NCBI GenBank assembly: GCA_951406725.2 | Contig: OX597823.1 | Location: forward strand, 100,006,001 to 100,070,000 | From: Octopus vulgaris | Lineage: Eukaryota | Direction of reading: 5' to 3' | Length of the DNA: 64,000 bases | Shown: positions 1 through 64,000 of the stretch, in pieces | Layout of the letters: each line of letters opens with the position of its first letter | Numbering within the stretch: position 1 is the first letter of the stretch | The notes under the pieces: model-generated | What the model was told of the DNA's origin: nothing | Database searches by the model: none | The model's input: the letters and a program-made list of their open reading frames with translations, nothing else | Position numbers and translations under genes: made by a program

Positions 1-3000
1 CATGAAGAAGCAGAAGGGCTGAAACGTAAGCCAAGAATATCCATGATGTTTCATGAAGAAGCAGAAGGGCTGAAACGTAAGCCAAGAATATCCATGATGT
101 TTCATGAAGAAGCAGAAGGGCTGAAACGTAAGCCAAGAATATCCATGATGTTTATAAATAACCAGAAGGGCTGAAACGTAAGCCAAGAATATCCATGATG
201 TTTCATGAAGAAGCAGAAGGACTGAAACGTAAGCCAAGAATATACATGATGTTTCATGAAGAAGCAGAAGGGATGAAACGTAAGCCAAGAATATACATGA
301 TGTTTCATGAATAAGCAGAAGGACTGAAACGTAAGCCAAGAATATACATGATGTTTCATGAATAAGCAGAAGGGCTGAAACGTAAGCCAAGAATATCCAT
401 GATGTTTCATGAATAAGCAGAAGGGCTGAAACGTAAGCCAAGAATATCCATGATGTTTCATGAAGAAGCAGAAGGGCTGAAACGTAAGCCAAGAATATAC
501 CATGATGTTTCATGAATAAGCAGAAGGGCTGAAACGTAAGCCAAGAATATACATGATGTTTCATGAAGAAGCAGAAGGGCTGAAACGTAAGCCAAGAATA
601 TACATGATGTTTCATGAAGAAGCAGAAGGGCTGAAACGTAAGCCAAGAATATACATGATGTTTCATGAATAAGCAGAAGGGCTCAAACGTAAGCCAAGAA
701 TATCCATGATGTTTCATGAATAAGCAGAAGGGCTGAAACGTAAGCCAAGAATATCCATGATGTTTCATAAATAACCAGAAGGGCTGAAACGTAAGCCAAG
801 AATATACATGATGTTTCATGAATAAGCAGAAGGGCTGAAACGTAAGCCAAGAATATCCATGATGTTTCATGAATAAGCAGAAGGGCTGAAACGTAAGCCA
901 AGAATATACATGATGTTTCATAAATAAGCAGAAGGGCTGAAACGTAAGCCAAGAATATACATGATGTTTCATGAAGAAAGCAGAAGGGCTGAAACGTAAG
1001 CCAAGAATATACATGATGTTTCATGAATAAGCAGAAGGGCTGAATCGTAAGCCAAGAATATACATGATGTTTCATGAATAAGATGAAGGGCTGAAACGTA
1101 AGCCAAGAATATCCATGATGTTTCATGAAGAAGCAGAAGGGCTGAAAAGTCAGCCAAGAATATACATGATGTTTCATGAAGAAGCAGAAGGGCTGAAAGT
1201 CAGCCAAGAATATACATGATGTTTCATAATAAGCAGAAGGGCTGACGTAAGTCACGAATATCCATGATGTTTCATGAATAAGCAGAAGGGCTGAAACGTA
1301 AGCAAAGAATATACATAATGTTTCATGAAGAAGCAGAAGGGATGAAACGTAAGCAAGAATATACATAATGTTTCATGAAGAAGCAGAAGGGATGAAACGT
1401 AAGCCAAGAATATACATGATGTTTCATGAATAAGCAGAAGGGCTGAAACGTAAGCCAAGAATATACATGATGTTTCATGAATAAGCAGAAGGGCTGAAAC
1501 GTAAGCCAAGAATATACATGATGTTTCATGAATAAGCAGAAGGGCTGAAACGTAAGCCAAGAATATACATGATGATTCATGAATAAGATGAAGGGCTGAA
1601 ACGTAAGCCAAGAATATCCATGATGTTTCATGAAGAAGCAGAAGGGCTGAAACGTAAGCCAAGAATATCCATGATGTTTCTTGAAGAAGCAGAAGGGCTG
1701 AAACGTAAGCCAAGAATATTCATGATGTTTCATAAATAAGCAGAAGGGCTGAAACGTAAGCCAAGAATATCCATGATGTTTCATAAATAAGCAGAAAGGG
1801 CTGAAACGTAAGCCAAGAATATCCATGATGTTTCATAAATAAGCAGAAAGGCTGAAACGTAAGCCAAGAATATCCATGATGTTTCATGAATAAGCAAAAG
1901 GGCTGAAACGTAAGCCAAGAATATCCATGATGTTTCATGAATAAGCAGAAGGGCTGAAACGTAAGCCAAGAATATACATGATGTTTCATAAATAAGCAGA
2001 AGGGCTGAAACGTAAGCCAAGAATATCCATGATGTTTCATGAATAAGCAGAAGGGCTGAAACGTAAGCCAAGAATATACATGATGTTTCATGAATAAGCA
2101 GAAGGGCTGAAACGTAAGCCAAGAATATACATGATGTTTCATGAATAAGCAGAAGGGATGAAACGTTAGCCAATTAAATACATGATGTTTCATGAATAAG
2201 CAGAAGGGATGAAACGTTAGCCAATTAAATACATGATGTGTCATGAAGAAGCAGAAGGGCTGAAACGTAAGCCAAGAATATACATGATGTTTCATGAAGA
2301 AGCAGAAGGGCTGAAACGTAAGCCAAGAATATACATGATGTTTCATGAAGAAGCAGAAGGGCTGAAACGTAAGCCAAGAATATCCATGATGTTTCATGAA
2401 GAAGCAGACGGGCTTAAACGTAAGTCATGAATATACATGATGTTTCATGAATAAGCAGAAGGGCTGAAACGTAAGCGAAGAATATACATGAAGTTTCATG
2501 AATAAGCAGAAGGGATAAAACGTAAGCCAAGAATATCCATGATGTTTCATGAAGAAGCAGAAGGGCTGAAACGTAAGTCAAGAATATACATGACGTTTCA
2601 TGGAGAAGCAGAAGGGCTGAAACGTAAGCCAAGAATATACATGATGTTTCAAGAATAAGATGAAGGGCTGAAACGTAAGCCAAGAATATACATGATGTTT
2701 CAGGAAGAAGCAGAAGGGCTGAAACGTAAGCCAAGAATATACATGACGTTTCATGGAGAAGCAGAAGGGCTGAAACGTAAGCCAAGAATATACATGATGT
2801 TTCATGAAGAAGCAGAAGGGCTGAAACGTAAGCCAAGAATATCCATGATGTTTCAGGAAGAAGCAGAGGGGCTGAAACGTAAGCCAAGATTTTATATGAT
2901 GTTTCAAGAATAAGATGAAGGGCTGAAACGTAAGCCAAGAATATACATGATGTTTCATGAAGAAGCAGAAGGGCTGAAACGTAAGCCAAGAATATACATG

Positions 3001-6000
3001 ACGTTTCATGGAGAAGCAGAAGGGCTGAAACGTAAGCCAAGAATATACATGACGTTTCATGGAGAAGCAGAAGGGCTGAAACGTAAGCCAAGAATATACA
3101 TGATGTTTCATGAAGAAGCAGAAGGGCTGAAACGTAAGCCAAGAATATCCATGATGTTTCAGGAAGAAGCAGAGGGGCTGAAACGTAAGCCAAGATTTTA
3201 TATGATGTTTCATGAATAAGCAGAAGGGCTTGAACGTAAGCCAAGAAAATACATGATGTTTCATGAATAAGCAAAAGGGCTGAAACGTAAGCCAAGAATA
3301 TATATGATGTTTCATGAATAAGCAGAAGGGCTGAAACGTAAGCCAAGAATATACATGATGAGTCATGAATAAGCAGAAGGGCTTAAACGTAAGCCAAGAA
3401 TATACATGATGTTTCCTGAATAAGCAGAAGGGCTGAAGCGTAAGCCAAGAATATACGTGATGTTTCATGAAGAAGCAGAAGGGATGAAACGTAAGCCAAG
3501 AATATACATGATGTTTCATGAAGAAGCCGAAGAGATGAAACGTAAGCCAAGAATATACATGATGTTTCATGAAGAAGATGAAGGGCTGAAACGTAAGCCA
3601 AGAATATACATGATGTTCCATGAATAAGCAGAAGGGCTGAAACGTAAGCCAAGAATATACATGATGTTTCATGAAGAAGCAGAAGGGCTGAAACGTAAGC
3701 CAAGAATATACATGATGTTTCATGAAGAAGCAGAAGGGCTGAAACGTAAGCCTTGAATATACATGATGTTTCATGAAGAAGCAGAAGGGCTGAAACGTAA
3801 GCCTTGAATATACATGATGTTTCATGAATAACCAGAAGGGCTGAAACATAAGCCAAGAATATACATGATGTTTCATGAAGAAGCAGAATGGCTGAAACGT
3901 AAGCCAAGAATATACAAGATGTTTCATGAATAACCAGAAGGGCTGAAACTTAAGCCAAGAATATACATGATGTTTCATGAAGAAGCAGAAGGGCTGAAAC
4001 GTATGCCAAGAATATACATGATGTTTCATGAAGAAGCAGAAGGGCTGAAACGTAAGCCTTGAATATACATGATGTTTCATGAAGAAGCAGAAGGGCTGAA
4101 ACGTAAGCCTTGAATATACATGATGTTTCATGAATAACCAGAAGGGCTGAAACATAAGCCAAGAATATACATGATGTTTCATGAATAAGCAGAAGGGCTG
4201 AAACGTAAGCCAAGAATATACATGATGTTTCATGAAGAAGCAGAAGAGCTGAAACGTAAGCCAAGAATATACATGATGTTTCATGAAGAAGCAGAAGAGC
4301 TGAAACGTAAGCCAAGAATATACATGATGTTTCATGAAGAAGCAGAAGAGCTGAAACGTAAGCCAAGAATATACATGATGTTTCATGAATAAGCAGAAGG
4401 GCTGAAACGTAAGCCAAGAATATACGTGATGTTTCATGAATAAGCAGAAGTGCTGAAACATAAGCCAAGAATATACATGATGTTTCATGAATAAGCAGAA
4501 GTGCTGAAACGTAAGCCAAGAATATACATGATGTTTCATGAAGAAACAGAAGGGCTGAAACGTAAGCCAAGAATATCCATGATGTTTCATGAAGAAGCAG
4601 AAGGGCTGAAACGTAAGCCAAGAATATACATGATGTTTCATGAATATGCAGAAGGGCTGAAACATAAGCCAAGAATATACATGATGTTTCATGAAGAAGC
4701 AGAAGGGCTGAAACGTAAGCAATGAATATCCATGATGTTTCATGAAGAAGCAGAAGGGCTGAAACATAAGCCAAGTATATACATGATGTTTCATGAAGAA
4801 GCAGAAGGGCTGAAACGTAAGCCAAGAATATACATGCTGTTTCATGAAGAAGCAGAAGGCCTGAAACGTAAGCCAAGAATATCCATGATGTTTTATGAAT
4901 AAGCAGAAGGGCTGAAACGTAAGCCAAGAATATACATGATGTTTCATGAATAAGCAGAAGGGCTGAAACGTAAGCCAAAAATATACATGATGTTTCATGA
5001 ATAAGCAGAAGGGCTGAAACGTAAGCCAAGAATATACATGATGTTTCATGAATAAGCAGAAGGGCTGAAACGTAAGCCAAAAATATCCATGATGTTTCAT
5101 GAAGAAGCAGAAGGGCTGAAACGTAAGCCAAGAATATCCATGATGTTTCATGAATAAGCAGAAGGGCTGAAACGTAAGCCAAGAATATACATGATATTTC
5201 ATGAATAAGCAGAAGGGCTGAAACGTAAGCCAAGAATATCCATGATGTTTCATGAATAAGATGAGGGGCTGAAACGTAAGCCAAGAATATCCATGATGTT
5301 TCATGAATAAGCAGAAGTGATTAAACGTAAGCGAAGTATATACATGATGTTTCATGAAGAAGCAGAATGGCTGAAACGTAAGCCAAGAATATACATGATA
5401 TTTCATGAATAACCAGAAGGGCTGAAACGTAAGCTAAGAATATCCACGATGTTTCAGGAAGAACCAGAAGGGATGAAACGTAAGCCAAGAATATCCATGA
5501 TGTTTCATGATGAAGCAGCAGGGCTGAAACGTAAGCCAAGAATATACATGATATTTCATGAATAACCAGAAGGGCTGAAACGTAAGCCAAGAATATCCAT
5601 GATGTTTCAGGAAGAACCAGAAGGGATGAAACGTAAGCCAAGAATATCCATGATGTTTCATGAAGAAGCAGAAGGGATGAAACGTAAGTCAAGAATATAC
5701 ATGATGTTTCATGAATAAGCAGAAGGGATGAAACGTAAGCCAAGAATATACATGATGTTTCATGAATAAGATGAAGGGCTGAAACGTAAGCCAAGAATAT
5801 ACATGATGTTTCATGAAGAAGCAGAAGGGCTGAAACGTAAGCCAAGAATATCCATGATGTTTCATGAATAACATGAAATGCTGAAACGTAAGCCAAGAAT
5901 ATCCATGATGTTTCATGAATAACCAGAAGGGCTGAAACGTAAACCAAGAATGTACATGATGTTTCATGAATAAGCAGAAGGGCTGAAACGTAAGCCAAGA

Positions 6001-6608
6001 ATATCCATGGTGTTTCATGAATAACCAGAAGGGCTGAAACGTAAGCCAAGAATATACATGATGTTTCATGAAGAAGCAGAAGGGCTGAAACGTAAGCCAA
6101 GAATAACCATGATGTTTCATGAATAACCAGAAGGGCTGAAACGTAAGCCAAGAATATACATGATGTTTCATGAAGAAGCAGAAGGGCTGAAACGTAAGCC
6201 AAGAATAACCATGATGTTTCATGAATAACCAGAAGGGCTGAAACGTAAGCCAAGAATATCCATGATGTTTCATGAAGATGCAGAAGGGCTGAAACGTAAG
6301 CCAAGAATATACATGATTTTTCATGTAGTAGCAGAAGGGCTGAAACGTAAGCCAAGAATATCCATGATGTTTCATGTATAACCAGAAGGGCTGAAACGTA
6401 AGCCAAGAATATCCTTGATGTTTCATGAATAACCAGAAGGGCTGAAACGTAAGCCAAGAATATCCATGATGTTTCATGAAGAAGCAGAAGGGCTGAAACG
6501 TAAGCCAAGAATATACATGATGTTTCTTGGATAAGCAGAAGGGCTGAAACGTAAGCCAAGAATATACATGATGTTTCATGAATAAGATGAAGTGCTGAAA
6601 CGTAAGCC
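1..6608. repeat. 51-bp tandem satellite, about 130 units, truncated by the window start
   Basis: Unit CATGAAGAAGCAGAAGGGCTGAAACGTAAGCCAAGAATAT(A/C)CATGATGTTT repeats head-to-tail with scattered substitutions and a few indels. It ends abruptly at ...CGTAAGCC (6608). Confidence 0.98.
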
Positions 6609-6687
6609 CTTTCTAAATGGGTAATGTAACTTTGAAGTTAGGTCTAAGGTAATATCTAGGAAATTAACTATCTTAGTTTTAGTTTCA

Positions 6688-7464
6688 TATGTACTGCCTA
6701 GAAATTTCAATAATAATAATAATAATGGTAATATTAAAAATATTATTAATAATAATGATAGCAACAACAACAACAATAATAATAATGATAATAATAATAA
6801 TAATAATAATAACAACGTTGGTATAAATAATGATAATAACAATACCAATAATACAGATAGTATAAGTAAAATTATGGTAGGTGGGAATGATGGTGAAGAT
6901 GGATTGATAAATAGTAACCCTAATTTAGATATCAACATGATCACTAATAATGAAAATAATACTAATAATAATTTAAATATCAGTAATGTTCGGGAACTAT
7001 CCTTAAATAATTCCAAAACTGAATACTATCCCCCCCCCAGTTGTAATTGTAGGATTAGATCAAAATGTCTGGTATCTGGTCGTTGTTCGGTCCAAAACGT
7101 AACTTATAAATGCACGATAATAACTTCTAACATTAGCTTTCTTTATTTCGGATGTTCGGTGGATTTAAAAAAACGTCTTAACAATCATTTTTCCTCTTTT
7201 AGACTAAAACATAAGGCAGGTTGCACAACACTATCTAGCAAAATTTGGGAACTAAAAACAAATAATATAGGATTCAACCTAAAATGGGATATAGTTAGAA
7301 GGGCGAAACCTTATAGAAATAGTAGGGAAGGTTGCCAACTTTGTTCTATGGAAACTTATGAAATTTTAAAACATCAGAGTAATATAAATCTGTTGAATAA
7401 TCGTCTGGAGTTGGGACAATCTTGCATACATTCCACAACTCGAACGTTTAAATACTTTAAATGA
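6688..7464 (+). pseudogene. PLE GIY-YIG endonuclease domain with an Asn-rich linker (open frame, no RT in frame)
   Basis: Motifs CNCRIRSKC..SGRC..NVTYKC..YFGCS..LKKRLNNHFSSF..TTLSSKIWELK..LKWDIV..CQLC..E..LLNNRLE..CIH match PLE endonucleases. The frame stays open upstream of the annotated ATG through an (AAT)n tract. Confidence 0.85.
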
Positions 7465-8080
7465 AAATTATGAGTATTCCTATATTTTTCAAATTTTAAC
7501 TTTTTATTATAATAATAAGAAGAAATATACTATACTAGCCTTCAACTTAACTTTCATAGAGGACTAAAAATCTTCACTGTAAACTTGAAATTGAATTTTT
7601 TTGTAAATCTAATCTAGTCTTAAAGTTAATAAAGCTATCCCCCAATTATAAAATACTATGCCTTCTCATAATAATAAGTGATAGTTTTTTCCCTACTCTT
7701 TGTAAAGGAGATTAATGACCTTTTGACACTGACCTAGTTTCTTCTCACCAAATAGCAGTAATTGGCATCTTGTTAGTGGCAACTTGAATTCCTTTTATGG
7801 TATTCTGAAACTTCCCTTACCCTCATTCCTACAACTAACTTGAATTCCTTTTATGATATTCTGTAACCTCCCTTACCCACATTCATGCAACTAAAAAAAT
7901 CTTTTATTACTTCTAATTCTTGTAGCAGTTAAACACAACCATAGTTTGGTTAGTTAGTGGGTGGACTTCACAACCTAATGTTCTTAAAATTTAAATCTAC
8001 ATCTTTATCTGTATATCTACCTTCTCTAAAATGTTACTACTTGATTTGGAAGCTTTTGTATTACTGGAAAACCTATATAA

Positions 8081-8166
8081 TTGGCTGAAGAGCACTCAAC
8101 ATCTTAAATCTGCTGTAATACTTACAACTTTTAATAGAATGTTGTAGTGTGAAACAAATGTACCAA
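8081..8166 (+). ncRNA. type I hammerhead ribozyme motif in the PLE 3' region
   Basis: TTGG-CTGAAGA-[GCACT CAACAT...ATGTTG T AGTGT]-GAAA-CAAATG-TA-CCAA. The core is intact, stem I is TTGG/CCAA and stem II is long. Confidence 0.8.
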
Positions 8167-8202
8167 ATTACCGGAGTCATTCTTGTTGCTTATATATATA
8201 TA

Positions 8203-13228: not shown

Positions 13229-15338
13229 TCCTTAAATCCTTAAAAATGTTTTAGCCCGAAGGCCGCGGCCATGCTGGGGCACCACCGCTGAATGAGCTAC
13301 ACTAGTTTGTGAATCCACCTTTGATACGTGGCACTTGATCAACAAGGGAGTTCGATGCTGCTGCCCGCATCCGTGTCTCCTGTCATAAGGTAGGTTCATC
13401 TGGGACTCCCAACAAGAAGAGATCCAGTTTAGTTTTAAAGAAACCCACATCCACACCATGTAAGTCTCTCAGGCATTTAGGGAGGATGTTAAAGAGCTGT
13501 GGTCCTCTGAAACCCAAGCTGTTGCAGTATCTGGACCTGTATTTTGATGGTGATGTTGGAATCCTTGGCACCACGCAGCGGCGCCCGTTCTGCGGTTGGA
13601 GTAACTTTGAATGCCAAAGTTTGGGACAAGACCCTCCAGGATTTTCCAGATGTATATCACTGCATATCTCTCCCGCCTCCGCTCCAGGGAGAAGAGGTTT
13701 AATACCTTCAGTCTTTCCCAGTAGCTGACATTTTGCATTGAGACGATTTTCTTTGTGTAGCTTCTCTGAGTTGCTTCGAGTTCTGCTGTTTGTTTTATAT
13801 TGTGTGGTGACCAAAGTTGGGAGCAGTAGTCCAAGCGGCTGAGGACGAATGTTTTCCATAGGACCATCAGTGTCTCCTTCTCTCTTGTTCTGAAAGTTCG
13901 GAGAATCCATCCAGCTAGCCGTCTGCATTTTATCACCAGATTGGCAATATGCATTTGGAAAGATGCATCATTGCTCATGTCAATGCCCAGGTAACGCACT
14001 GATTTTGACTCAGGGATTGCAATTCTTCCTGGGCCAGTGTATCCAGTCTTCACGTCATTTACCTTTGTGTGCCAGTAGCGCAGGGCCTGGAACTTACCTG
14101 CATTAAACTGCATGTTGTTGTCCTCAGCCCACCTGTATATTGTGTCCAGCTCATGTTGCAGATGCGCAATATTTTCAGGGTTTTGTATTGCGTGGGAGAC
14201 TTTTGTGTCATCTGCATAGCTAGCAAGGGTGGTCATCGTAGCAACTGAAGGCATGTCTGAAAGGGCCACTATGAACATCAGTGGCCCCAAGACAGTGCCC
14301 TGTGGGACACCGCTTGTTATTTGCGTTTCCTTGGAGGTGGCTCCATTGCTCACAACTGCCTGTTTTCTGTCTTTTAGGAAGTTGTGCAGCCACTCTCCAA
14401 GTTTTCCGCCTATGCCGAGACCACGCAGTTTGTGACAGATCATACCATGGTCGACTTTATCAAAGGCTTTTGCAAAGTCAAGATATATTACATCCAGATT
14501 TGAGCCATTTAGTAGCTGTTTCAACACCCAGTCATAGTGTTGCAGGAGCTGTGTTAGGCAGCCTCTACCTGGTCGAAATCCATGCTGGGTGTCAGACAGT
14601 AAGTCATTTTCTTCAAGGAACATGATTAGTTTCTTACGGACTATTCGTTCCATGACTTTGCTGATGTGTGAGGTCAGAGAGATAGGCCTATAATTTTTAG
14701 CATCTGCTCTGCTACCTCCCTTATGGATAGGGCATATTACCCCTCTTTCAGTTTGACTGGGAGCTTACCACTTGCAAGAAAGCTCTGAAAAAGAAGCTGT
14801 AGCGGTTTTGCAAGGGCTCGTTTGCACGATTTGAGAAGGATCGCTGGGAATCCATCAGGTCCAGCAGCTGAGTTTGTGTCAATCTCATCAATGGCTAGTG
14901 TGATATCATCTTCTTCGATGTTGATGTACTCAATTTTTGTCTCTTTGGCCGCTGGTAAAGTGGCAAAGAATTCTTCTGGGTTGTTTACTTGCCTGTGTCC
15001 TAGAGGTGTAGTGAACACACTTTGGAACTGTTCGTTCAGTATTTCACTTATCCTCGTGGGATTTCCTGTGAGAGAGCCATCTTTTTGGAAGAGAGGTCCT
15101 ATTCTCTGGTGCACTGTGGCTGTCTCTTTGGCAAACTTAAAGAAAGCTTTAGGGTTTGATTTTATATTTTCTATTACCCAAGCTTCTTTATCTGCTCTCT
15201 CCTTTTCATGGGACTGATGTAGACTTTTCTCAGTTTCCATTAGCATTCTTTCGAGCCGAGACTTCTCACCACTTTTGGTGTGCTTGCTCAGGCGGTTTGC
15301 AATCCTTGTCCGTCGTCTCATAAGAATCCTCCTTTCTC

Positions 15339-15340
<2 letters not shown>
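13229..15340 (-). mobile_element. 5'-truncated CR1-type LINE (RT region, disrupted)
   Basis: Motifs AAGPDG, NYRPISLTS, QHGFRPGR, YLDFAKAFDKV, SGVPQGTVLGP, YADD, LDYCSQLWSP and SLERRR. Frameshifts near 14740 and 13585. The 3' tail is GTGCCCCAGCATGGCCGCGGCCTTCGGGCTAAAAC, and (TA)n flanks both sides. Confidence 0.93.
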
Positions 15341-15381
<41 letters not shown>

Positions 15382-15522
15382 ATATATATGTGTGTATATA
15401 TATATATGTGTGTGTATATATATATATGTATGTATATATATATGTATATATATATATGTATGTATATATATATATATATGTATATGTATATATATATGTA
15501 TACATATATATGTGTTTATATA

Positions 15523-39860: not shown

Positions 39861-41270
39861 GGATCTTTTCCTTTTGATAGCCAGATTTCAACACAATTTC
39901 TAGTTAACTAAACACATTAAAACTTCGTATACTGGTAGAATGTGTCAAAAGAAAACATCATTTTCACTTGGCTTTCTTGAGAAAATTGTAATTTGTTCGT
40001 TTAACGTAGTTTAATTTTTCGAATTTTAACCAATCCTATGCTCTCTTTTGAGCTGAAATCATTTGCTGCGTCTAAAAACTGAGACAACATCCGTTTTGTT
40101 CGTAATGTAGCGTTCGTGAGTTCGATATCAGGCTAACCTACCGGCCCCACGGTGGGATTTTTTTCTTTACGATTATTAGTAAATTTTTTTCTTTATGATT
40201 ATTCACGTTTATTTATCAATATCAATAACAAATTACTGCCGTTGTTTAGACCGGCCCCAGTACGTAACTGGTACTTAATTTATCCCTAACTCTAACCCTA
40301 ACCATAAACCTAACCCCTAACCCTAACCCTAACCCTAACCCTAACCCCTAACCCTAAACCTAACCTCTAACGCTGAACCTAACCCCTAACCCTAAACCTA
40401 ACCAAAGCTAGCGACCGATGCCGGAAGGCTGTCACGAGATAGGGTTAGGGGTTAGGTTTAGGGTTATGGGTTAGGCTTAGGGTTAGGTTTAGGGTTAGGG
40501 TTAGGCTTAGGGATAAATGAAGTACCAGTTACACACGCACGCACTGGTGTCGATAGAATCGACTTAATACTTTTGTCTCTCATGCTTTGTCCCCTCTGTG
40601 TTTTGCCCCTTGCCGGAACAAATTTACACAAAAGGTAAATAAACCAGAAATAGGGGATCAATGTTTCATCGTTTCGGGGTCGATAAATTAAGTACCAATT
40701 ACGCACTGGTGTCGAGGATTTTTTTTCCCCAATTTATATCACAGCCTCCGACAAGCTGGAGCATCCTTTTATGAAAAAATATTTCGCAAATTTTTACAAT
40801 ACGACCCACACTCCACGCACCCGATTTAGGCATATTATTCTTTTGTTTTTGTTGTTTTTAGCCCTTCAAAACCATGGGAGAAGCCTTTTTGGTAAAAAAA
40901 AAAAAGAAAGAAAATATTCAAAAAATATCGTTAATATTTTTATTGGGCGACGAAATTCATCGATTTAAGAGATATGGCTGTTGTTTCTAGCACATGCCAA
41001 CACAACCCTCCTCGTTTGTTTATCAATATCGAGTGTCAGGATGTTGTCTGAGCTTTTAGACGCAGCAAATGATTTCAGCTCAAAAGAGAGCGTAGGATTG
41101 GTTAAAATTCGAAAAATTAAACTACGTTACGAACAAATTACAATTTTCTCAAGAATGCCAAGTGAAAATAATGTTTTTTTTTTTTACACATTCTACCAGT
41201 ATACGAAGTTTTAAAGTGTTTAGTTAACTAGAAATTGTGTTGAAATCTGGCTATCAAAAGGAAAAGATCC
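39861..41270. mobile_element. 1410-bp non-autonomous TIR transposon with an 8-bp TSD (CGGATTTC) and internal telomeric repeats
   Basis: Long TIRs GGATCTTTTCCTTTTGATAGCCAGATTTCAACAC... at both ends. CGGATTTC occurs at 39853-39860 and 41271-41278. Confidence 0.92.
40283..40512. repeat. inverted interstitial telomere-like arrays: (CCCTAA)n, spacer, (TTAGGG)n
   Basis: Degenerate CCCTAA run at about 40283-40403 and TTAGGG run at about 40440-40512. Confidence 0.9.
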
Positions 41271-43762: not shown

Positions 43763-44582
43763 GGATCTTCTCCTTTTGAACGGCACTTTGTAACATAATT
43801 TCTAAGTAACTAAAAAGTTTTAAACTTCGTATACTGGTAGAATGTGTTTATAAAACATTATTTTCTCTTGGCTTTATTGTGAAAATTCTATAGTTTGTAA
43901 GATATTTCGTCTGAAATTACTTGCATTTCGGCAATTCTAACCAATCAATTACCTCCATTGACGTAAATAACATTCTGTGCATAATGAATATGTCCCTCCT
44001 TTAAGAAACAGATTTGTGAAAAAAAAAGATACCTTTCCCCCACCCCTAATCCTAACCCTAACTCTAACCCTAAATCTAAAATAGATTGAAATGCAATAGA
44101 TCGATACTAGGGTTATAATTATGGGTGACAATTTCATACGACACCGCTACGGAAAATGGGATTTATTTCTTGCGGTGTCAAATGAAAATGTCACCCATAA
44201 TTATGGCCCTAGTATCGATCTATTGCATTTCAATCTATTTTAGATGTAGGGTTAGTGTTAGGGTTAGTTAGGGTTAGGGTTAGAGGTTGGGGAAGGGTAT
44301 CTTTTTTTCTTCATAAATGTAAATAAACCCAATCTGTTTCTTAAAGGAGAGACATATTCATTATGCACAGAATGTTATTTACGTCAATGGAGGTAATTGA
44401 TTGGTTAAAATTGCCGAAATGCAAGAAATTTTAGACGAAATATCTTACAACCTATAGAATTTTCTCAATAAAGCCAAGAGAAAATGATGTTTTATAAACA
44501 CATTCTACCAGCATACGAAGTTTAAAACTTTTTACTTACCTAGAAATTATGTTACAAAGTGCCGTTCAAAAGGAAAAGAACC
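43763..44582. mobile_element. 820-bp almost wholly palindromic fold-back MITE with an 8-bp TSD (AAATTTTA)
   Basis: Arms of about 390 bp are reverse complements. The TSD is at 43755-43762 and 44583-44590. Confidence 0.92.
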
Positions 44583-47124: not shown

Positions 47125-50100
47125 GTATGGCAGGTCACTTTCGAGTGCTACTGGTAACATGTAACCCAGAACAACCTGTTGCATGGTCGGGTCGTCGGCG
47201 ACTAAACCGGTAACCCCACCAAGCTTGCTTGGTGAGGAGGGTGTTTATTGGACACCCTGCGGGATGAAAAACAAAACCCGTCAAAGGGCGGAGGAACTCT
47301 TGAGAGTCAACGGCCATCCAATAAATGCGTTTTTTTTCTTTTCTTTTCTTCTTAAGGCATCCTTCTAGGAGAAGGTAACTCAGGTAACTGGGATAACTCC
47401 GACATAAAACCTGCGGCTCAGTGGTTACCAATGATGTTGACTTGTTCTTCTTTTCGGATTATGGCTACTGTTGCTTAGTGAGTGGGATTGACTTTCCTCA
47501 CTTAAAAAAAAATCTTTTTGCACAGGTATTGCACGATAACTACATTGGATTGATTAAAGTGATTAACTAATTCATGACTGTTGATAGTGCTGTGAGTCTC
47601 AACTGAATGGCTGACTGTAGCCTTAAAAAGCAAAAATCAATGATGTACCGAAACAGTATAAAAATAAATGGCAGTAAGGAATCTGGAACCACATCGGCTG
47701 AAAGAGTCTGGCCCGGCAGGGGCTCCAGAGAATCACAATCTGAACCCGGCCGTCATCATGCTACTGTGATAGAACCAAAGAAAATAATGAATATTGGCTG
47801 TTGGAATGTAAGGACACTGCTTGACCACAAGTCCTCTGAATGTCCTGAAAGAAGGACTACGCTTGTTGCGAAGGAGCTTCAACGCTATGATCTTGACATC
47901 GTTGCTTTATCTGAGATGAGATTACCTGGAGATGATCATCTTACAAAATCTTGTGGATAAATATACATTCTTTTGGAAAGGGAGAGATGAAGAGCTTAGA
48001 GGAGAAGCTGGAGTGGCATTTGCTGTTAAGACTACTCTTGTGGACAAATTGGAAGAATTCCCAATCGGAATTAACGAGCGTCTTATGTCCATGAGAATTC
48101 CTTTGGCTAAAGGAAATTATATGACCTTGGTGAATGTGTATGCTCCAACTATGTGCTATACTGATGACGAAAAACTTTCTTTCTACCATGCTTTGAAGGG
48201 CATTATAAGAAATATCCCTCGGGCAGACAAAGTCATTGCACTGGGTGACTTTAATGCTAGAGTGGGTAGGGATTTTAACACATGGACTGTAATTGGAAAG
48301 CATGGGGTGGGGAAGTGTAATAGTAATAGCATGCTTTTGCTGCAGATGTGTGAGGAGCTGAGTCTGTGTGTTACCAATACCATGTTTCAACAAAAGAATA
48401 AGCTTAAGACTACATGGATGCACCCTGCATCTAAAGAATGGCATATTCTGGATTACATCCTAGTTAGGGTGCGTGACAGACAGGATGTGCAGTGTGTTCG
48501 TGTTCTTCGTGGAGCTGAGTGTTGGACTGACCACCGCCTAGTACGTGCAAAAGTGAAATTAGTCACAAAACATAAAATCCGAGCTGCAGGGATGACCCTG
48601 CCTAAAAGACTGAATGTTGATCGTCTTAGGTATAATAGTGTGAAGAGATCTTTACGAGAGGAAATGAATGCTGCAGATATTGGGGAGGATTGGCCGACCC
48701 TTAGAAAATCAGTTTATGATATAGGCAAAAAAGTTTTGGGATTGATACAAAGAAAGCATCAAGATTGGTTCAAAGAAAATGATGAACATATAGATGATTT
48801 ATTGGCTGATAAAAGACGTACTTGGTCACGCTATTTGTCAGCAAAGTCACAGGAAAGGGAAGTGTTGCATAGGGAACTCAAGGACGTAAAATCACGTGTG
48901 AGGCAAAAGCTCTCTCAGATGAGGGATACGTGGTGGAGTAAGAAGGCTGACGAGATACAGGCGGCATCAGATTCCAATAACACAAAGCTGTTGTATGGTC
49001 TCTTGCGAGAAGTTTATGGACCGACATCTTCCCTGATGACACCAATTCGAAGCAGGGATGGTAAAGAACTTCTTCGTGATTCACAAGGAATTCTGCAAAG
49101 GTGGCAAGAACACTTTGATGAACTTTTGAATCAGCAGTCTGTAGTTAGTGAGGATGTTCTCAATCTTATCTCTGGATTGCCTGTGAAGGCAGCACTCGCA
49201 GAACCACCAAAGTTGGAAGAAGTTGCAATGGCTGTCTCAAAGTTGAATAATGGGAAGTCTCCGGGTATGGATGGCATACATGCGGAGTTGTTACAGCATG
49301 GTGGTGAGAAAATTCTGCAGAAACTTCACTCTTTGTTTGGTAAGGTATGGACTAGGGAATCTGTACCTGAGGGCTGGAGAGATGCAGTAATGGTGGTCCT
49401 GTATAAGGGAAAGGGCAACAGGAATGATTGTGGTAATTATAGGGGAATATAATTGCTGTCTGCTGTAGGAAAGGTTTTATGCAGGATACTTCTGGATCGT
49501 CTGCTGAAATACGTTGCAGATTGTGTTCTTCCAGAAAGTCAATCTGGCTTTCATGTGGGACGTGGCACAGCTGATATGATCTTTTCAGCTAGACAGCTTC
49601 AGAAAAAGTGTGTGGAACAGGGTCTGGATTTGTATCAGGTGTTTGTCGATCTAACAAAAGCCTTTGATACCGTCAATAGAAAAGCATTGTGGAAAGTCCT
49701 CCAGAAACTTGGGTGTCCTGAAAATTTCCTTGCTTTGGTTAGGTCTTTTAATGAAGACATGAATGGTAGGGTGAATTTTAGAGGGAAGATGTCGGAGCCC
49801 ATTTCAATACAAAATGGAGTGAAACAGGGGGATATTCTAGCACCGACCCTATTTTCCATATATTTCGCGATGGTGTTCTGTATTGCATTCAGAAACTGCA
49901 GATACGGTGTTTACGTCCATTATCGAACCTCTGGCAGCATATTTAATATCAGGCGCCTTGCTGCAAAAACAAAGATATTTACCTCTGTCATAAGAGACCT
50001 TTTGTATGCTGATGATTGTGAGCTAGTAGCACACACATAGATTGATATGCAACACATTTTGAATGCATTCTCTGATGCTTGCACTGCCTTAGGATTGACA

Positions 50101-51256
50101 GTCAATCTCAAGAAAACTGTTGTCATGCATCAACCTGCCCCTGGTAAGCAGTATAGTGTACCAAATATCTATGTGTATGGTAAACGACTTGATGTAGTCG
50201 ATCAGTTTGTCTACCTGGGAAGCACTATTAATAGACATGGCAATGTGGATGATGAAGTTCCATATAGAATTAGGAAAGCAAGTGTTGCTTTCGGAAGGCT
50301 AGAAAAGTGCCTCTGGAATCGGCGAGACATATGCAGAAAGACAAAGATAAAGGTGTACAAGGCATGTGTGCTCCCTTCTCTTCTCTATGCCTGCGAGACG
50401 TGGGTCACATATCGACACTACCTTAAACATCTGGAACGTTTCCATCAGATGTGCCTCAGACGGATCTATGGCATTAAGTGGAAGGACCGCATCAGTGATC
50501 TTGAAATATTGGAAGGCTCTCGGAGTGAAAGTATAGAAGCTCTTGTGTTAAGCAAAGGCTCAGATGGAGTGGTCATCTGGTCAGAATGAAGGATTCAAGG
50601 ATGCCAAAACAACTCTTTTATGGAGAGTTAGCTAAAGGAGAACGACCTCCACATAAACCAAAAAAGTGGTATAAGGACTTGCTGAAGGCTTCCTTAAGAG
50701 ATGCTTGCATCTCTCCTGACACATGTGAAGGCATAGCTATTGATCGTAACAGGTGGAGAAGGATTGTGCATGAGGGGACAGCTACTTTTGAGAAATCTCG
50801 AGTTGCACATGAGAAAGTAAGGAGGGATGTCAGGAAGAGCATCACTGTTACACTTCCAGATGGGAAGAGTCTTCCTATGATGCTGACATGCAGTGTCTGT
50901 GCAAGACCCTGCCTCAGTAAAGCTGGACTCAAGAGTCACCTTCGTAGTCATAAAACGAGACAGATGAGTGACAACCTGGCCACTGGTGGTGGTGTAACAC
51001 ACCATACTAATCATATCTGTTGGGAACGTGGAAGAGAGTGTAATTCGGCAGGAGGACTTAAACGACATGCAAAGGTACATGAAGCCCAGTTGCAACTACA
51101 GCCGGCTATTACCAGTAAAGGTCTTAGTTGCCAATTTTGTACAAGACATTGTAGATCTTTAGCTGGGCTAAAAAGTCACATTCGATCACAGCACCAATAA
51201 AAGTTAAGCTTCGTGCAATGGCCATACTCGATAACGAGGGGGCAGCCATAATGTAA
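47125..51256 (+). mobile_element. near full-length RTE-clade LINE (5' boundary approximate)
   Basis: A GC-richer 5' UTR is followed by one long disrupted ORF and a short 3' UTR that runs into a microsatellite. Confidence 0.9.
47607..51200 (+). pseudogene. RTE ORF: APE endonuclease, RT and three C2H2 zinc fingers, with two frameshifts and two stops
   Basis: Motifs IGCWNVRTL, IVALSE, VYAPT, LGDFNARVG, LDYILV, WTDHRLV, NYRGI*LLS, FVDLTKAFDTV, GVKQGDILAPTLF and LYADD. Lesions near 47950, 49450, 50038 and 50555. Confidence 0.95.
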
Positions 51257-52995: not shown

Positions 52996-53044
52996 ATATA
53001 TGTGTGTGTGTGTGTGTGTGTATGAGTATGTATATGTATATATA

Positions 53045-53101
<57 letters not shown>

Positions 53102-53282
53102 ATTAGGGCTTAGTAAAATAAATTACTTTGCCACATACTGAACTTAGTAGAAATAGCAGCCCAAAAAAATTTTCTTAGCATTTCTACTACTTAAAGAAAA
53201 TTTCTCTCAGATAATGTTTACTCTAGACAGCTCACGAAGGTTTGGGGGTAAATACAGAAAAATATCACAATTACATAGATCG

Positions 53283-53345
53283 TTTGAGTACGTCAACGTT
53301 TCAAGATTAGCCAAATAAAATCAGCATTTCTTTCGTCAGCTCAAA
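53283..53345 (-). ncRNA. canonical type I hammerhead ribozyme, copy 1
   Basis: Minus strand: TTTGAG-CTGACGA-AAGA(...)TCTT-GAAA-CG TTGA CG-TA-CTCAAA. Stem I is 6 bp, the core is intact and the cleavage triplet is GUA. Confidence 0.9.
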
Positions 53346-53845
53346 ATTTCTTAATTTGGATTTGGAAACACTAAAAAGAAGGAACTTTACCTATCAGCGA
53401 CTTGTCGCTTCAGATGAACCACTCCAACTAACAGTGTCAACAAATTCAAAATGCGCAGGCGTAAAATTCTGCACTCCCCATTCCACCCACGTGGTCTATC
53501 TAGCAAATATTATATTTTAACCGCGAGAACCGAGGCAGTATGACCGAGAGATATGAATTATAATATCAACAATTGAGGGTAAAATTAATTAATTAATCAA
53601 TTTCACCAAGTGTTCAGTATGTAAAAGGACCATTTAAGGCGAATTCAAAATATTACATTATATAATTAGGGCTTAGTAAAATAAATTACTTTGCCACATA
53701 CTGAACTTAGTAGAAATAGCAGCCCAAAAAAATTTTCTTAGCATTTCTACTACTTAAAGAAAATTTCTCTCAGATAATGTTTACTCTAGACAGCTCACGA
53801 AGGTTTGGGGGTAAATACAGAAAAATATCACAATTACATAGATCG

Positions 53846-53908
53846 TTTGAGTACGTCAACGTTTCAAGATTAGCCAAATAAAATCAGCATTTCTTTCGTC
53901 AGCTCAAA
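53846..53908 (-). ncRNA. canonical type I hammerhead ribozyme, copy 2
   Basis: Identical to copy 1. Confidence 0.9.
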
Positions 53909-54408
53909 ATTTCTTAATTTGGATTTGGAAACACTAAAAAGAAGGAACTTTACCTATCAGCGACTTGTCGCTTCAGATGAACCACTCCAACTAACAGTGT
54001 CAACAAATTCAAAATGCGCAGGCGTAAAATTCTGCACTCCCCATTCCACCCACGTGGTCTATCTAGCAAATATTATATTTTAACCGCGAGAACCGAGGCA
54101 GTATGACCGAGAGATATGAATTATAATATCAACAATTGAGGGTAAAATTAATTAATTAATCAATTTCACCAAGTGTTCAGTATGTAAAAGGACCATTTAA
54201 GGCGAATTCAAAATATTACATTATATAATTAGGGCTTAGTAAAATAAATTACTTTGCCACATACTGAACTTAGTAGAAATAGCAGCCAAAAAAAATTTTC
54301 TTAGCATTTCTATTACTTAAAGAAAATTTCTCTCAGATAATGTTTACTCTAGACAGCTCACGAAGGTTTGGGGGTAAATACAGAAAAATATCACAATTAC
54401 ATAGATCG

Positions 54409-54471
54409 TTTGAGTACGTCAACGTTTCAAGATTAGCCAAATAAAATCAGCATTTCTTTCGTCAGCTCAAA
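54409..54471 (-). ncRNA. canonical type I hammerhead ribozyme, copy 3
   Basis: Identical to copy 1. Confidence 0.9.
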
Positions 54472-55651
54472 ATTTCTTAATTTGGATTTGGAAACACTAA
54501 AAAGAAGGAACTTTACCTATCAGCGACTTGTCGCTTCAGATGAACCACTCCAACTAACAGTGTCAACAAATTCAAAATGCGCAGGCGTAAAATTCTGCAC
54601 TCCCCATTCCACCCACGTGGTCTATCTAGCAAATATTATATTTTAACCGCGAGAACCGAGGCAGTATGACCGAGAGATATGAATTATAATATCAACAATT
54701 GAGGGTAAAATTAATTAATTAATCAATTTCACCAAGTGTTCAGTATGTAAAAGGACCATTTAAGGCAAATTCAAAATATTACATTATATAATTATTATTG
54801 AGGTTGATATGGCGTGTGTAATGATACCTACATCCGGACATATCACTAGTTGCAGGAGACAGGTTTATATATGTGAGAGTGGGTACGCATGTAGACACAC
54901 ACTTACACACATACAAGATATGCTTAAAGCATGTAGCGTGGGACTGCTATAAACTGACCACTCGCCTCAACTATATCATATTTCACCCCCCCCCCCCCCG
55001 ATAATTAAAAGTAATTTACGACGCTCACCACAGCATCAGAACTTTAACCCATTATCTCTCTATCTTAATCCTTTTGTCTTTACGACCGCTTTGTATACTT
55101 TTGCATCTTTTTATCTTTATTTCATTTTATCTTTATTTTTGTTTTTTATTTTTTATTTTTTACTCGTTATTTTTGTACATTTTACACTTTCACAATACAT
55201 TTCTAGAATTTATAACCCTATACCTGACGTTCTTTATATCTTTATATATTTATATTTTTACATCTTTACCTTTTATTATATTTTATTATCTTTTATAATT
55301 ATATTTATATTTATATATTTTTTTTGTGATCCCAACTTCATTAACGTTTCCCCCCTTCTCCTCTATTCTCCTTTTTCTCTTTTTCTCAACATCCAATGCT
55401 CCTTTTTTCATTCCCTTACAAGAAGAATGAACCCAACCGGAATTTACCCAGTATTCACTCTATATTAAGTGAGAAAACGGTATGGACGGATTTTTGGAGT
55501 CCAATAATACCCTGTACGCCTATTTGATTATGAAGATTTACAAACATACTTTCCCAGTTATACTCGGTTTACCTACCATTATAAATAATACAAAATGTTC
55601 TTTCTCAAACCTTTCATAATGTGATACAAGTCTTTGGTGTAGCAATTGTAT

Positions 55652-55866: not shown

Positions 55867-56403
55867 ATGTAAAGTATAATAGCCATCTCAATATGGCTAA
55901 CCACAAAGGGTGGGTGCTACTGTAGCTTTTAGCCCCAGAAGATCATCGTCTCCAGCTGGCTTTAGGCACACTATCTGTGCCCTTATGGTATTTGCAAAGG
56001 GAGGCCATCCCATTCTCGTAAGCCTAAGTGATACGCACCGGACCGCGGTTTCGAGGTTGTTGCCTCTTATCAACGGGCGGTAATCACCGGATCACGATGA
56101 AAGACAGTTTTTCGAAATCAGTGAGGGAGTTACTAGAAAAACACATATATTTGCATACAGGCTTTCTCTTTCATCGTGATCCGGTGATTACCGCCCGTTG
56201 ACAAGAGGCAAATACCTGGAAACTGCGGTCCGTGCGTATCACTTAGGCTTACGAGAGAGGGATGGCCTCCCTTTGCAAATACCATAAGGGCATAGATAGT
56301 GTGCCTAAAGCCAGCTGGAGACGATGATCTCCTGGGGCTAAAAGCTACAGTAACACCCACCCTCAGTGGTTAGCCATATTGAGATGGCTATTATACTTTA
56401 CAT
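55867..56403. mobile_element. fold-back element or MITE with arms of about 237 bp
   Basis: ATGTAAAGTATAATAGCCATCTCAATATGGCTAACCAC...CACGATGAAAGA and its reverse complement, separated by a spacer of about 60 bp. Confidence 0.88.
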
Positions 56404-62818: not shown

Positions 62819-62958
62819 CGTGATCACCGTGACCGACCAGACTATCAGATGTTGCTACACATCGCTGGTCACAATGCGCTTCGGATAGTTTTAGCCTTCA
62901 AATGACGCCACCCCGCTGGCTAAGCGAGCAGGCAAATATATATATATATATATATATT

Positions 62959-63533
62959 ATATTATATTGAGGGTACTACTATTCGTAGATACCAACACGC
63001 TAAGAGGGACCAATGCGGTCAAAACTACTAAAAATAAACAAAATTTTACCGGAATAGTTCAATACTGAATTTTTATTCCGACTAGACAATTTGTTACCGA
63101 AATGCATTGCGAAAAAGCCCGCCATTTTCATAGATATGTAAGGATAAACATTCGTACAAGCTACGACGAATTCTACGGTTAGCTATCGAGTTTGTAATGT
63201 TATGTTTTTTCTTATATTTCTTGAGTTTGTTGCACTGACGAACATGAAATGCATATTCTGCATTAAATGCGAAATCACATGTGATATGTAACTGAATTCT
63301 TTTTTAAAATGATGTGTTTTGAAGTTTTGCATTCGGTAAAATTTTGTTTATTTTTAGTAGTTTTGACCGCATTGGTCCCTCTTAGTGTGTTGGTATCTAC
63401 GAATAGTAGTACCCTCAATATAATATAAATGAATATTTTCAAAGAGGAAGAATTTACGGATTTTTTCTCTTACGAGGTTTTTCACGCTGACTACTGATAA
63501 TTTCTTTTAAAGATTTTATCCTCAATTGTTAAT
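62959..63533 (+). mobile_element. ORF-less PLE-like element with a hammerhead and an inverted duplication of about 90 bp, between (TA)n tracts
   Basis: 62959-63050 is the reverse complement of about 63334-63424. An internal HHR lies at 63229-63292 and the element ends CCTCAATTGTTAA(TA)n. Confidence 0.75.
63229..63292 (+). ncRNA. type I hammerhead ribozyme motif
   Basis: GTTGCA-CTGACGA-ACAT GA AATGCA TATTC TGCATT AA ATGC-GAAA-TCACATGTGA-TA-TGTAAC. Stem I is 6 bp and stem III is a 10-nt palindrome. The first pair of stem II is an A-C mismatch. Confidence 0.8.
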
Positions 63534-63599
63534 ATATATATATATATGAAAAAACAAGTCAGGATAGAAAATGCTAAAATAATTTTATAAAGAACATTT

Positions 63600-63637
63600 C
63601 AGTACCGGTTTCAGTCATTTTGAGACCTTTTCAACTG
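63600..63637 (-). ncRNA. 38-nt minimal hammerhead with a U3-A8 core variant
   Basis: Minus strand: CAG-TTGAAAA-GGTC TCAAAAT GACT-GAAA-CCGG-TA-CTG. Confidence 0.75.
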
Positions 63638-64000
63638 TAGCAATTAAATAATTAAATTTAGAAAAATTAAAAGAAAAGTTTTTTAAAAGAATATTTGTAT
63701 AGTGTTCAAATATAAGTGGCATTTTCCTTGTTTCTGCCTTTCTCTGTCTCTCTTGTTTACTCTTGTGGGTTCGAGGTCGTTGTGAATTCTTGGTAGGGAA
63801 GAAGGAGGAGGAGGAGGAGGAGGAGGAAGACGAAGAATTTGGGAGTGCCTTGATTGTAGTACTTTGAATGGTCAGTAGAGGCTAGCAGTTGCTGTTCAAT
63901 TCATGAAAATCTATTGAAAGTTTTGTTTATAGAATTCGCGTAGGTGATAAAGTTAGGAAGGAGAAGGAAGGAGAATGGGAGAAGAAGAAGAAGAAGAAGA

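Follow-up and report, generated by a model that had tools for sequence, protein, structure and literature searches.

A hammerhead-bearing tandem array in the octopus genome, probably a non-LTR retrozyme lying against a (TA)n tract

What sort of element consists of the same 563 letters set head to tail three times, with a ribozyme in every copy and no protein of its own? A locus in a 64-kb window of Octopus vulgaris DNA (the whole stretch analysed here, to which all coordinates refer) poses this question. Our answer is that the array is probably a non-LTR retrozyme and that a Hydra-like Penelope element likely inserted it at a (TA)n tract, using an RNA circle as template; its family most likely adds to the non-LTR retrozymes already described. 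A periodicity of 563 bp spans 53094-54794 and comprises three complete units followed by a 12-nt repeat of the unit's start. Identity between units 1 and 2 is 100%, and unit 3 departs from them at three of 563 positions (54288, 54313 and 54767), so the preliminary description, which had read three head-to-tail units with three substitutions all in the third, was confirmed by period analysis and unit comparison. It had also called the array ORF-less, and rightly so: the longest ATG-started frame of the unit has 34 codons and the longest stop-free frame 69. The GC content of the unit is 0.34, and no further copies were found elsewhere within the window.

53094..54794, minus strand: the array in full, 3 x 563 bp and a terminal direct repeat of 12 nt (period analysis)
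53094..53656, minus strand: unit 1 (period analysis)
53657..54219, minus strand: unit 2, identical to unit 1 (period analysis and unit comparison)
54220..54782, minus strand: unit 3, with three substitutions (period analysis)

On its minus strand every unit has a full type I hammerhead, made up of a 6-bp stem I, CUGACGA, a stem II of 4 bp plus an extension, GAAA, a 3-bp stem III with a 4-nt loop, and GUA. A descriptor scan recovered the canonical ribozyme in each unit with the same cut sites that had been proposed from inspection of the sequence.

53283..53345, minus strand: type I hammerhead of unit 1, predicted cut 53289/53288 (descriptor scan and folding)
53846..53908, minus strand: type I hammerhead of unit 2, predicted cut 53852/53851 (descriptor scan)
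54409..54471, minus strand: type I hammerhead of unit 3, predicted cut 54415/54414 (descriptor scan)
53289..53851, minus strand: predicted monomer of 563 nt, running from cut to cut, with 65% of it paired in circular form (descriptor scan and folding)

An Rfam search of the unit gave no hammerhead, neither at the gathering threshold nor at E<=10, and the ribozyme call therefore rests on a custom descriptor and on folding. When the unit was shuffled 20,000 times with its dinucleotides preserved, a hammerhead of any kind arose in 10 shuffles and one with stems this long in none. Folding of the cut-to-cut monomer gave a z-score of -4.19 on the minus strand, with none of 100 shuffles as good, and -2.62 on the plus strand, with one of 100 as good. 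The circle is predicted to fold into a branched rod. Along it the two halves of the unit, left and right, pair with each other (26 of the pairs being G-U on the minus strand), and an 11-bp inverted pair closes it with a probability of 0.98; hairpins of the unit junction occupy one end of the rod and the ribozyme the opposite end. With this folding, and with an active hammerhead fold predicted to cost only 0.3 kcal/mol over the circle's minimum, the monomer would be highly self-paired and its ribozyme still accessible, as in a retrozyme.

How well does this agree with what is known of such elements? Metazoan non-LTR retrozymes have units of 150-450 bp, those of Mytilus galloprovincialis measuring 350-390 bp (Cervera and de la Pena 2020, PMC7229834, in the text available). 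The octopus array resembles them in its tandem non-coding units, one type I hammerhead in each (three consecutive units here, where at least two define a retrozyme), its GC content of 34%, below 50%, and its apparent lack of an LTR, PBS or PPT; in a predicted circle that is highly self-paired with the ribozyme free to fold; and in the presence of a Penelope-like element in the same genome. This likeness is known from sequence and predicted folding. At 563 bp the unit is longer than those of PMC7229834, and the preliminary description had noted it as longer than known animal retrozyme monomers; it nevertheless lies inside the 51-972 bp given in the accessible text of a recent preprint (Li, Clavereau and Pollet 2026, bioRxiv 10.64898/2026.07.22.740005), and that objection falls. 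The same text also gives a reason for caution, in that only one of nine predicted dimers was cleaved. A literature search of article texts for octopus or cephalopod together with hammerhead or ribozyme returned no cephalopod retrozyme and no description of this 563-bp family; a giant-squid paper, in the portion available, lists 235 Rfam hammerhead matches without further study. Further literature for comparison, likewise available in part, comprised PMC13465315, PMC5753468, PMC9977147, PMC7992393, PMC13565253, PMC10288648 and PMC6962438.

The unit is not confined to this locus. Part of it is present in 20 of 24 listed public sequencing runs (nine studies, three organism labels), none of these holders being recorded as RNA. 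Details of the family come from four of them, X1, X2, X5 and X8, which were aligned as contigs only on unit 3 and its right flank with a threshold of 82%; the X8 contigs give no cover on the flank nor at 54640-54669, and the aligned records show neither the empty site nor a further readable insertion junction, but neither the missing cover nor the missing empty site is counted as evidence. Summed contig depth, which is not a copy number, is about 420 times that of the flank over the hammerhead bins in X2 and about 240 times in X5; at the two ends of the unit it rises to about 1,300 and 5,600 times, respectively. Depth ratios of 240 to 420, together with the many diverged contigs in X2 and X5, place the unit in a multi-copy family, as expected of a retrozyme. 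End-to-start joints appear in X2, X5 and X8 in several letter variants just to the right of the core sequence described below, and they are present in independent DNA runs; joining in tandem or in a circle is thus a trait of the family rather than an artefact of this assembly.

Other contigs tell us about the ribozyme. In a subfamily of X1, about 15% diverged, the ribozyme core still has its GAAAC side, correctly spaced (loose end 54451). Among 24 of the 235 loose ends, those inside the unit are mostly diverged homologues of its interior, with 19 of 30 letters agreeing by eye at 54502 and 21 of 30 at 54349. The sole change listed within the ribozyme, among 40 of the 213 change rows, turns GUA into GUU, which is still an NUH site. 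Near-identical contigs in X1 and X8 (records 2 and 25) span the predicted cut site, which is compatible alike with DNA, uncleaved RNA or a religated circle. A pattern scan of metagenomes gave a single match of 22 nt, attributable to chance, and one of prokaryote genomes gave none; viral contigs had no match to the inverted pair and five to the hammerhead core, none of them with closing stems or similarity to the unit.

Could the trimer itself be a local duplication, or an inflation by the assembler, of what is really a monomer or dimer of a genuine element? We consider this very unlikely. The complete identity of units 1 and 2 would suit it, and no aligned record spans the locus; against it, unit 3 differs at three places and tandem joints occur in independent DNA runs. 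Were it so, the copy count would change and the identity of the family would be unaffected. Letters 54397 and 54634 are common to all three units and absent from every contig aligned in the four runs, so that the units of the array descend from one template, and the sequence fits a young array derived from it. These shared private letters do not single out a circular template, as local tandem duplication of a monomer would also explain them. The ends of the array are displaced from the predicted cuts, by 195 and 380 nt, which is what copying of a circular or multimeric template should produce.

Where, then, do the ends lie? The preliminary description had looked for permuted ends, as in a retrozyme. 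Instead, the array starts and stops at one short core, exactly within its 12 nt, against the (TA)n tract, and the family is most conserved around this core.

53094..53105, no strand assigned: 12-nt core containing a 10-nt palindrome and TATATA; recurs at 53657, 54220 and 54783, and both array ends lie inside it
54783..54794, no strand assigned: terminal copy of the 12-nt core, belonging to the element, the target or both (period analysis)
53027..53093, no strand assigned: (TA)n tract adjoining the 3' end of the array in the hammerhead sense; likely insertion target (repeat scan)
53544..53776, minus strand: junction domain, the family's best-conserved part (unit-3 bins 54670-54789 and 54220-54339 mapped on the junction of units 1 and 2)
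53133..53143, no strand assigned: the 11-bp inverted pair's left arm, at a distance of 39 nt from the beginning of the core
53612..53622, no strand assigned: the pair's right arm, with 34 nt between it and the following core; in the circle the helix has a probability of 0.98
53145..53189, no strand assigned: hairpin with a likely compensated pair, unit-3 places 54273/54313 (folding and contig changes)
53578..53607, no strand assigned: AT-rich hairpin of 13 bp inside the junction domain (folding)

The best-conserved region of the family is not the ribozyme. It is a stretch of about 230 nt centred on the unit junction and its TATATA core, where depth is 2.9 to 31 times that of the interior across the four runs, with the 31-fold value in X5. 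Short conserved cores on either side of a variable stem II can miss the 82% threshold, and the low interior depth accordingly does not show loss of the ribozyme; in X5 it does not show its retention either. Of the original retrozyme reading, then, the sequence-level definition, the multi-copy family, the tandem or circular joints and the signs of RNA structure on the minus strand have stood, whereas the permuted ends and the unusual length have not. The inverted pair and the hairpin are where they were first noticed, the latter being of 10 bp (53145-53154/53180-53189); neither is striking alone, as among 3,000 shuffles 6.2% had an inverted pair of 11 bp and 62% had one of 9 bp. Some copies of the family may start elsewhere in the unit. 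Among 24 of the 235 loose ends, those at 54702 (X1, X8) and 54677 (X8) lead into apparently unrelated AT-rich flanks. Contigs of X1 and X8 both leave the unit at 54702, into different AT-rich sequence, which could be a second fixed end or a hypervariable loop.

A junction 3 to 31 times deeper than the interior counts against a retrozyme, since the ends of a DNA transposon would be expected to give the same pattern, and a DNA circle integrated by site-specific recombination would leave an array of this geometry. Ends fixed at one short core, and conservation there, keep such a rival open. Its form would be a non-autonomous, Crypton-like DNA transposon with fixed ends, excised as a DNA circle that a tyrosine recombinase integrates at a short TATA core, including the core of its own junction, to yield exact tandems; the hammerhead would be the cargo of one subfamily. 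We think this unlikely, though it has its attractions. The exact multiple of the unit, the short (12-nt) terminal direct repeat with its palindrome, the inverted pair at 39 and 34 nt from the core, and two ends whose conservation far exceeds that of the interior (31-fold in X5) would all follow. Non-autonomous Cryptons also have a short terminal direct repeat, conserved ends and no coding capacity, and a medaka family listed with them is of similar size, 573 bp (Kojima and Jurka 2011, PMC3212892). Yet the repeats described in the accessible text of that paper are of 4-6 bp, with none found in animal Cryptons, and the octopus unit has a structured RNA interior with a ribozyme. The right half of its core varies among tandem joints. 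Its interior is homologous across subfamilies and is predicted to pair between its two halves (on the minus strand 26 of these pairs are G-U), and a diverged subfamily keeps the ribozyme core. No recombinase ORF was seen within the window, and a literature search found no element combining a Crypton with a hammerhead. One version of the idea, in which the depth peaks are shared transposon ends around swapped cargo, was dropped because, among 24 of the 235 loose ends, those inside the unit are mostly homologous to its interior.

The inverted repeats bring to mind another group, the non-autonomous Helentrons (HINEs), with subterminal inverted repeats, a 3' hairpin and tandems made by rolling-circle replication, which here would have to carry a hammerhead. 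On the minus strand some 40-50 nt separate the 3' inverted repeat from the end, and a hairpin lies behind it; the available text of PMC4067079 has 38-60 and 8-35 bp for HINEs, and the octopus unit falls inside these limits. There the resemblance stops. The 5' repeat is 34-46 nt from the end rather than 2-4 nt, neither repeat is a palindrome, the flank is (TA)n and not a T run, and there is a 12-nt terminal direct repeat where HINEs, by that account, leave none. Two of three Helentron marks (the 5' subterminal repeat, and the T run without terminal repeat) are therefore missing, the 3' repeat with its hairpin being the one that is there, and a Helentron seems to us far-fetched.

Retrozymes, known parasites of animal genomes, are predicted to spread as RNA circles that Penelope-like retrotransposons copy, and the window holds the trace of a candidate helper.

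6625-8200, plus strand: Penelope-like 3' end, 5'-truncated, with a weak GIY-YIG match; a remnant, no intact copy being seen

This remnant, which places a Penelope-like element in the same genome as the array, has a type I hammerhead of its own at 8085, with a long stem II, and a (TA)n tract 28 nt past the cut. Its linker has CxCX5C, shared by 108 of its best 150 relatives, and no CCHH cysteine pair; among nine long relatives YRDD occurs in seven and DKT in two. These sequence marks (CxCX5C, YRDD and DKT) suggest that the remnant is a Hydra-like Penelope, a clade whose families are all inserted in (TA)n according to the accessible text of Craig et al. (2021, bioRxiv 10.1101/2021.04.23.441226). 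The array, in its hammerhead sense, resembles that clade in having a type I hammerhead and a 3' end at (TA)n; like the local remnant, it adjoins a (TA)n tract, and its core contains TATATA, as does the (TA)n target. It differs from the clade in having no ORF. Its (TA)n begins 194 nt past the last cut, as against 28 nt in the remnant, and the unit has no sequence similarity to the local Penelope pseudo-LTR. A further stretch at 63380-63800 on the minus strand has, by eye, a degenerate hammerhead-like motif followed by (TA)n, missed by the descriptor scan, and is probably another Penelope end. A weak match at 63513-63540 (E 0.002) was taken as chance, being AT-rich and on the wrong strand relative to the remnant there. 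That the unit is similar to neither Penelope end in the window speaks against the Penelope-helper model.

Another reading makes the array an orphan: a tandem of a Penelope pseudo-LTR or 3' end, left behind when an autonomous element inserted and having no life cycle of its own. Penelope insertions, as far as the sources at hand describe them, make partial tandems, bear hammerheads in their pseudo-LTRs and prefer (TA)n, and in the available text of the Xenopus preprint 24 of 57 retrozyme families matched 22 transposable elements, 21 of them Penelope-like, at Penelope termini (Li et al., bioRxiv 10.64898/2026.07.22.740005). We still regard an orphan as improbable here. The array has no Penelope ORF beside it; the several variants of the end-to-start joint show units joined to units across the family; and the hammerhead is of the full canonical type with a stable stem III. 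With 24 of the 235 loose ends listed, copies elsewhere may still be attached to such an ORF.

If the array is a retrozyme, as we favour, it could have been made as follows. The minus strand would be transcribed, as an editing-like bias in one run suggests, and each hammerhead in the read-through RNA would cut after GUA, releasing monomers of exactly 563 nt, as sequence and folding predict. A host ligase would circularise them, by analogy with the mussel and axolotl, whose retrozyme monomers were circularised by RtcB (PMC7229834, in the text available). The endonuclease of a Hydra-like Penelope would nick (TA)n; the TA end of the nicked plus strand, annealed to UAUAUA in the RNA core, would prime cDNA from the left end; and reverse transcription would roll three times round the circle before resolving at the same core. 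Rolling and resolution of this kind would leave an exact multiple of 563 plus 12 bp, out of phase with the cuts by 195/380 nt, which matches the array. The conserved junction domain of about 230 nt would serve as the signal read by the helper. The steps after cleavage, (TA)n priming included, are drawn from the geometry of one locus, and a literature search found no study of microhomology priming by Penelope elements.

A review, in its accessible text, describes metazoan retrozymes as having no conserved motif that would indicate a helper (PMC7761336); the octopus array differs in its conserved 230-nt junction domain and in a TATATA core ending at (TA)n. The family offers a conserved junction domain, a TATATA core matching the (TA)n target and a named candidate helper, the Hydra-like Penelope, in the same window, and this makes the question of the helper testable. 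To our knowledge, the copying of animal retrozymes back into the genome is still hypothetical, and we know of none for which a helper has been shown.

Does the family behave as though its minus-strand RNA mattered? Thirty changes are listed in the unit (40 of 213 change rows). Set on the predicted minus-strand fold, 12 are unpaired and the other 18 fall on pairs, which 8 of them preserve and 7 disrupt, the remaining 3 being halves of two compensated pairs. At 54273/54313 each change is present at 50-76% of depth in all four runs, unphased; at 54522/54535 the two change together in X2 record 12, as read from matching depths. Both pairs look compensated on the folding model. Of the 82 changed places in X8, a run guessed to be RNA, 39 are T>C; each of the other three runs has 10-14 such places among 86-109. 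The excess over X2 and X5 combined (Fisher p 1.6e-9) may come from one or two contigs and is a comparison of contigs only, between runs rather than within one individual; the bias is absent in X1. Editing of A to I by ADAR yields A>G. Because T>C on the plus strand is A>G on the hammerhead strand, the pattern is the one that A-to-I editing of that strand would give, and this sequence bias is a hint of minus-strand transcription. If the signal is true, the retrozyme RNA would be edited by ADAR, and a literature search pairing the two found nothing relevant, just an unrelated review. One could also imagine a hybrid element, which we hold to be distinctly unlikely: an RNA circle made by the hammerhead and hyper-edited by ADAR, whose DNA copy has fixed ends of the recombinase type (the palindromic TATA core and the inverted pair) and integrates site-specifically into TA microsatellites, the 230-nt junction being its attachment site.

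The window has other repeats. Directly upstream of the Penelope remnant, positions 1-6608 are a 51-bp satellite of about 130 copies at 93% match; it contains hammerhead-like fragments, with no intact core in descriptor scans. Two LINEs are present. That at 47920-51200 on the plus strand has an AP-endonuclease and reverse transcriptase broken by stops, zinc-finger-like motifs at its end and relatives in varied animals, and the second, at 13383-15400 on the minus strand, has a reverse transcriptase (Pfam RVT_1, E 4.9e-32) that a (TA)n tract splits. The relatives in the LINE search point to an animal host, with no cephalopod named among the 120 rows listed; a word-index search with the Penelope fragment gave no match, and one Atlas cluster names Mollusca, from one member. 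Long inverted repeats of MITE-like appearance lie at 55867-56403 (172 nt at 96%) and 62957-63428 (95 nt at 99%). Finally, telomere-like CCCTAA and TTAGGG tracts stand head to head around short spacers at 40284-40512 and 44044-44292.
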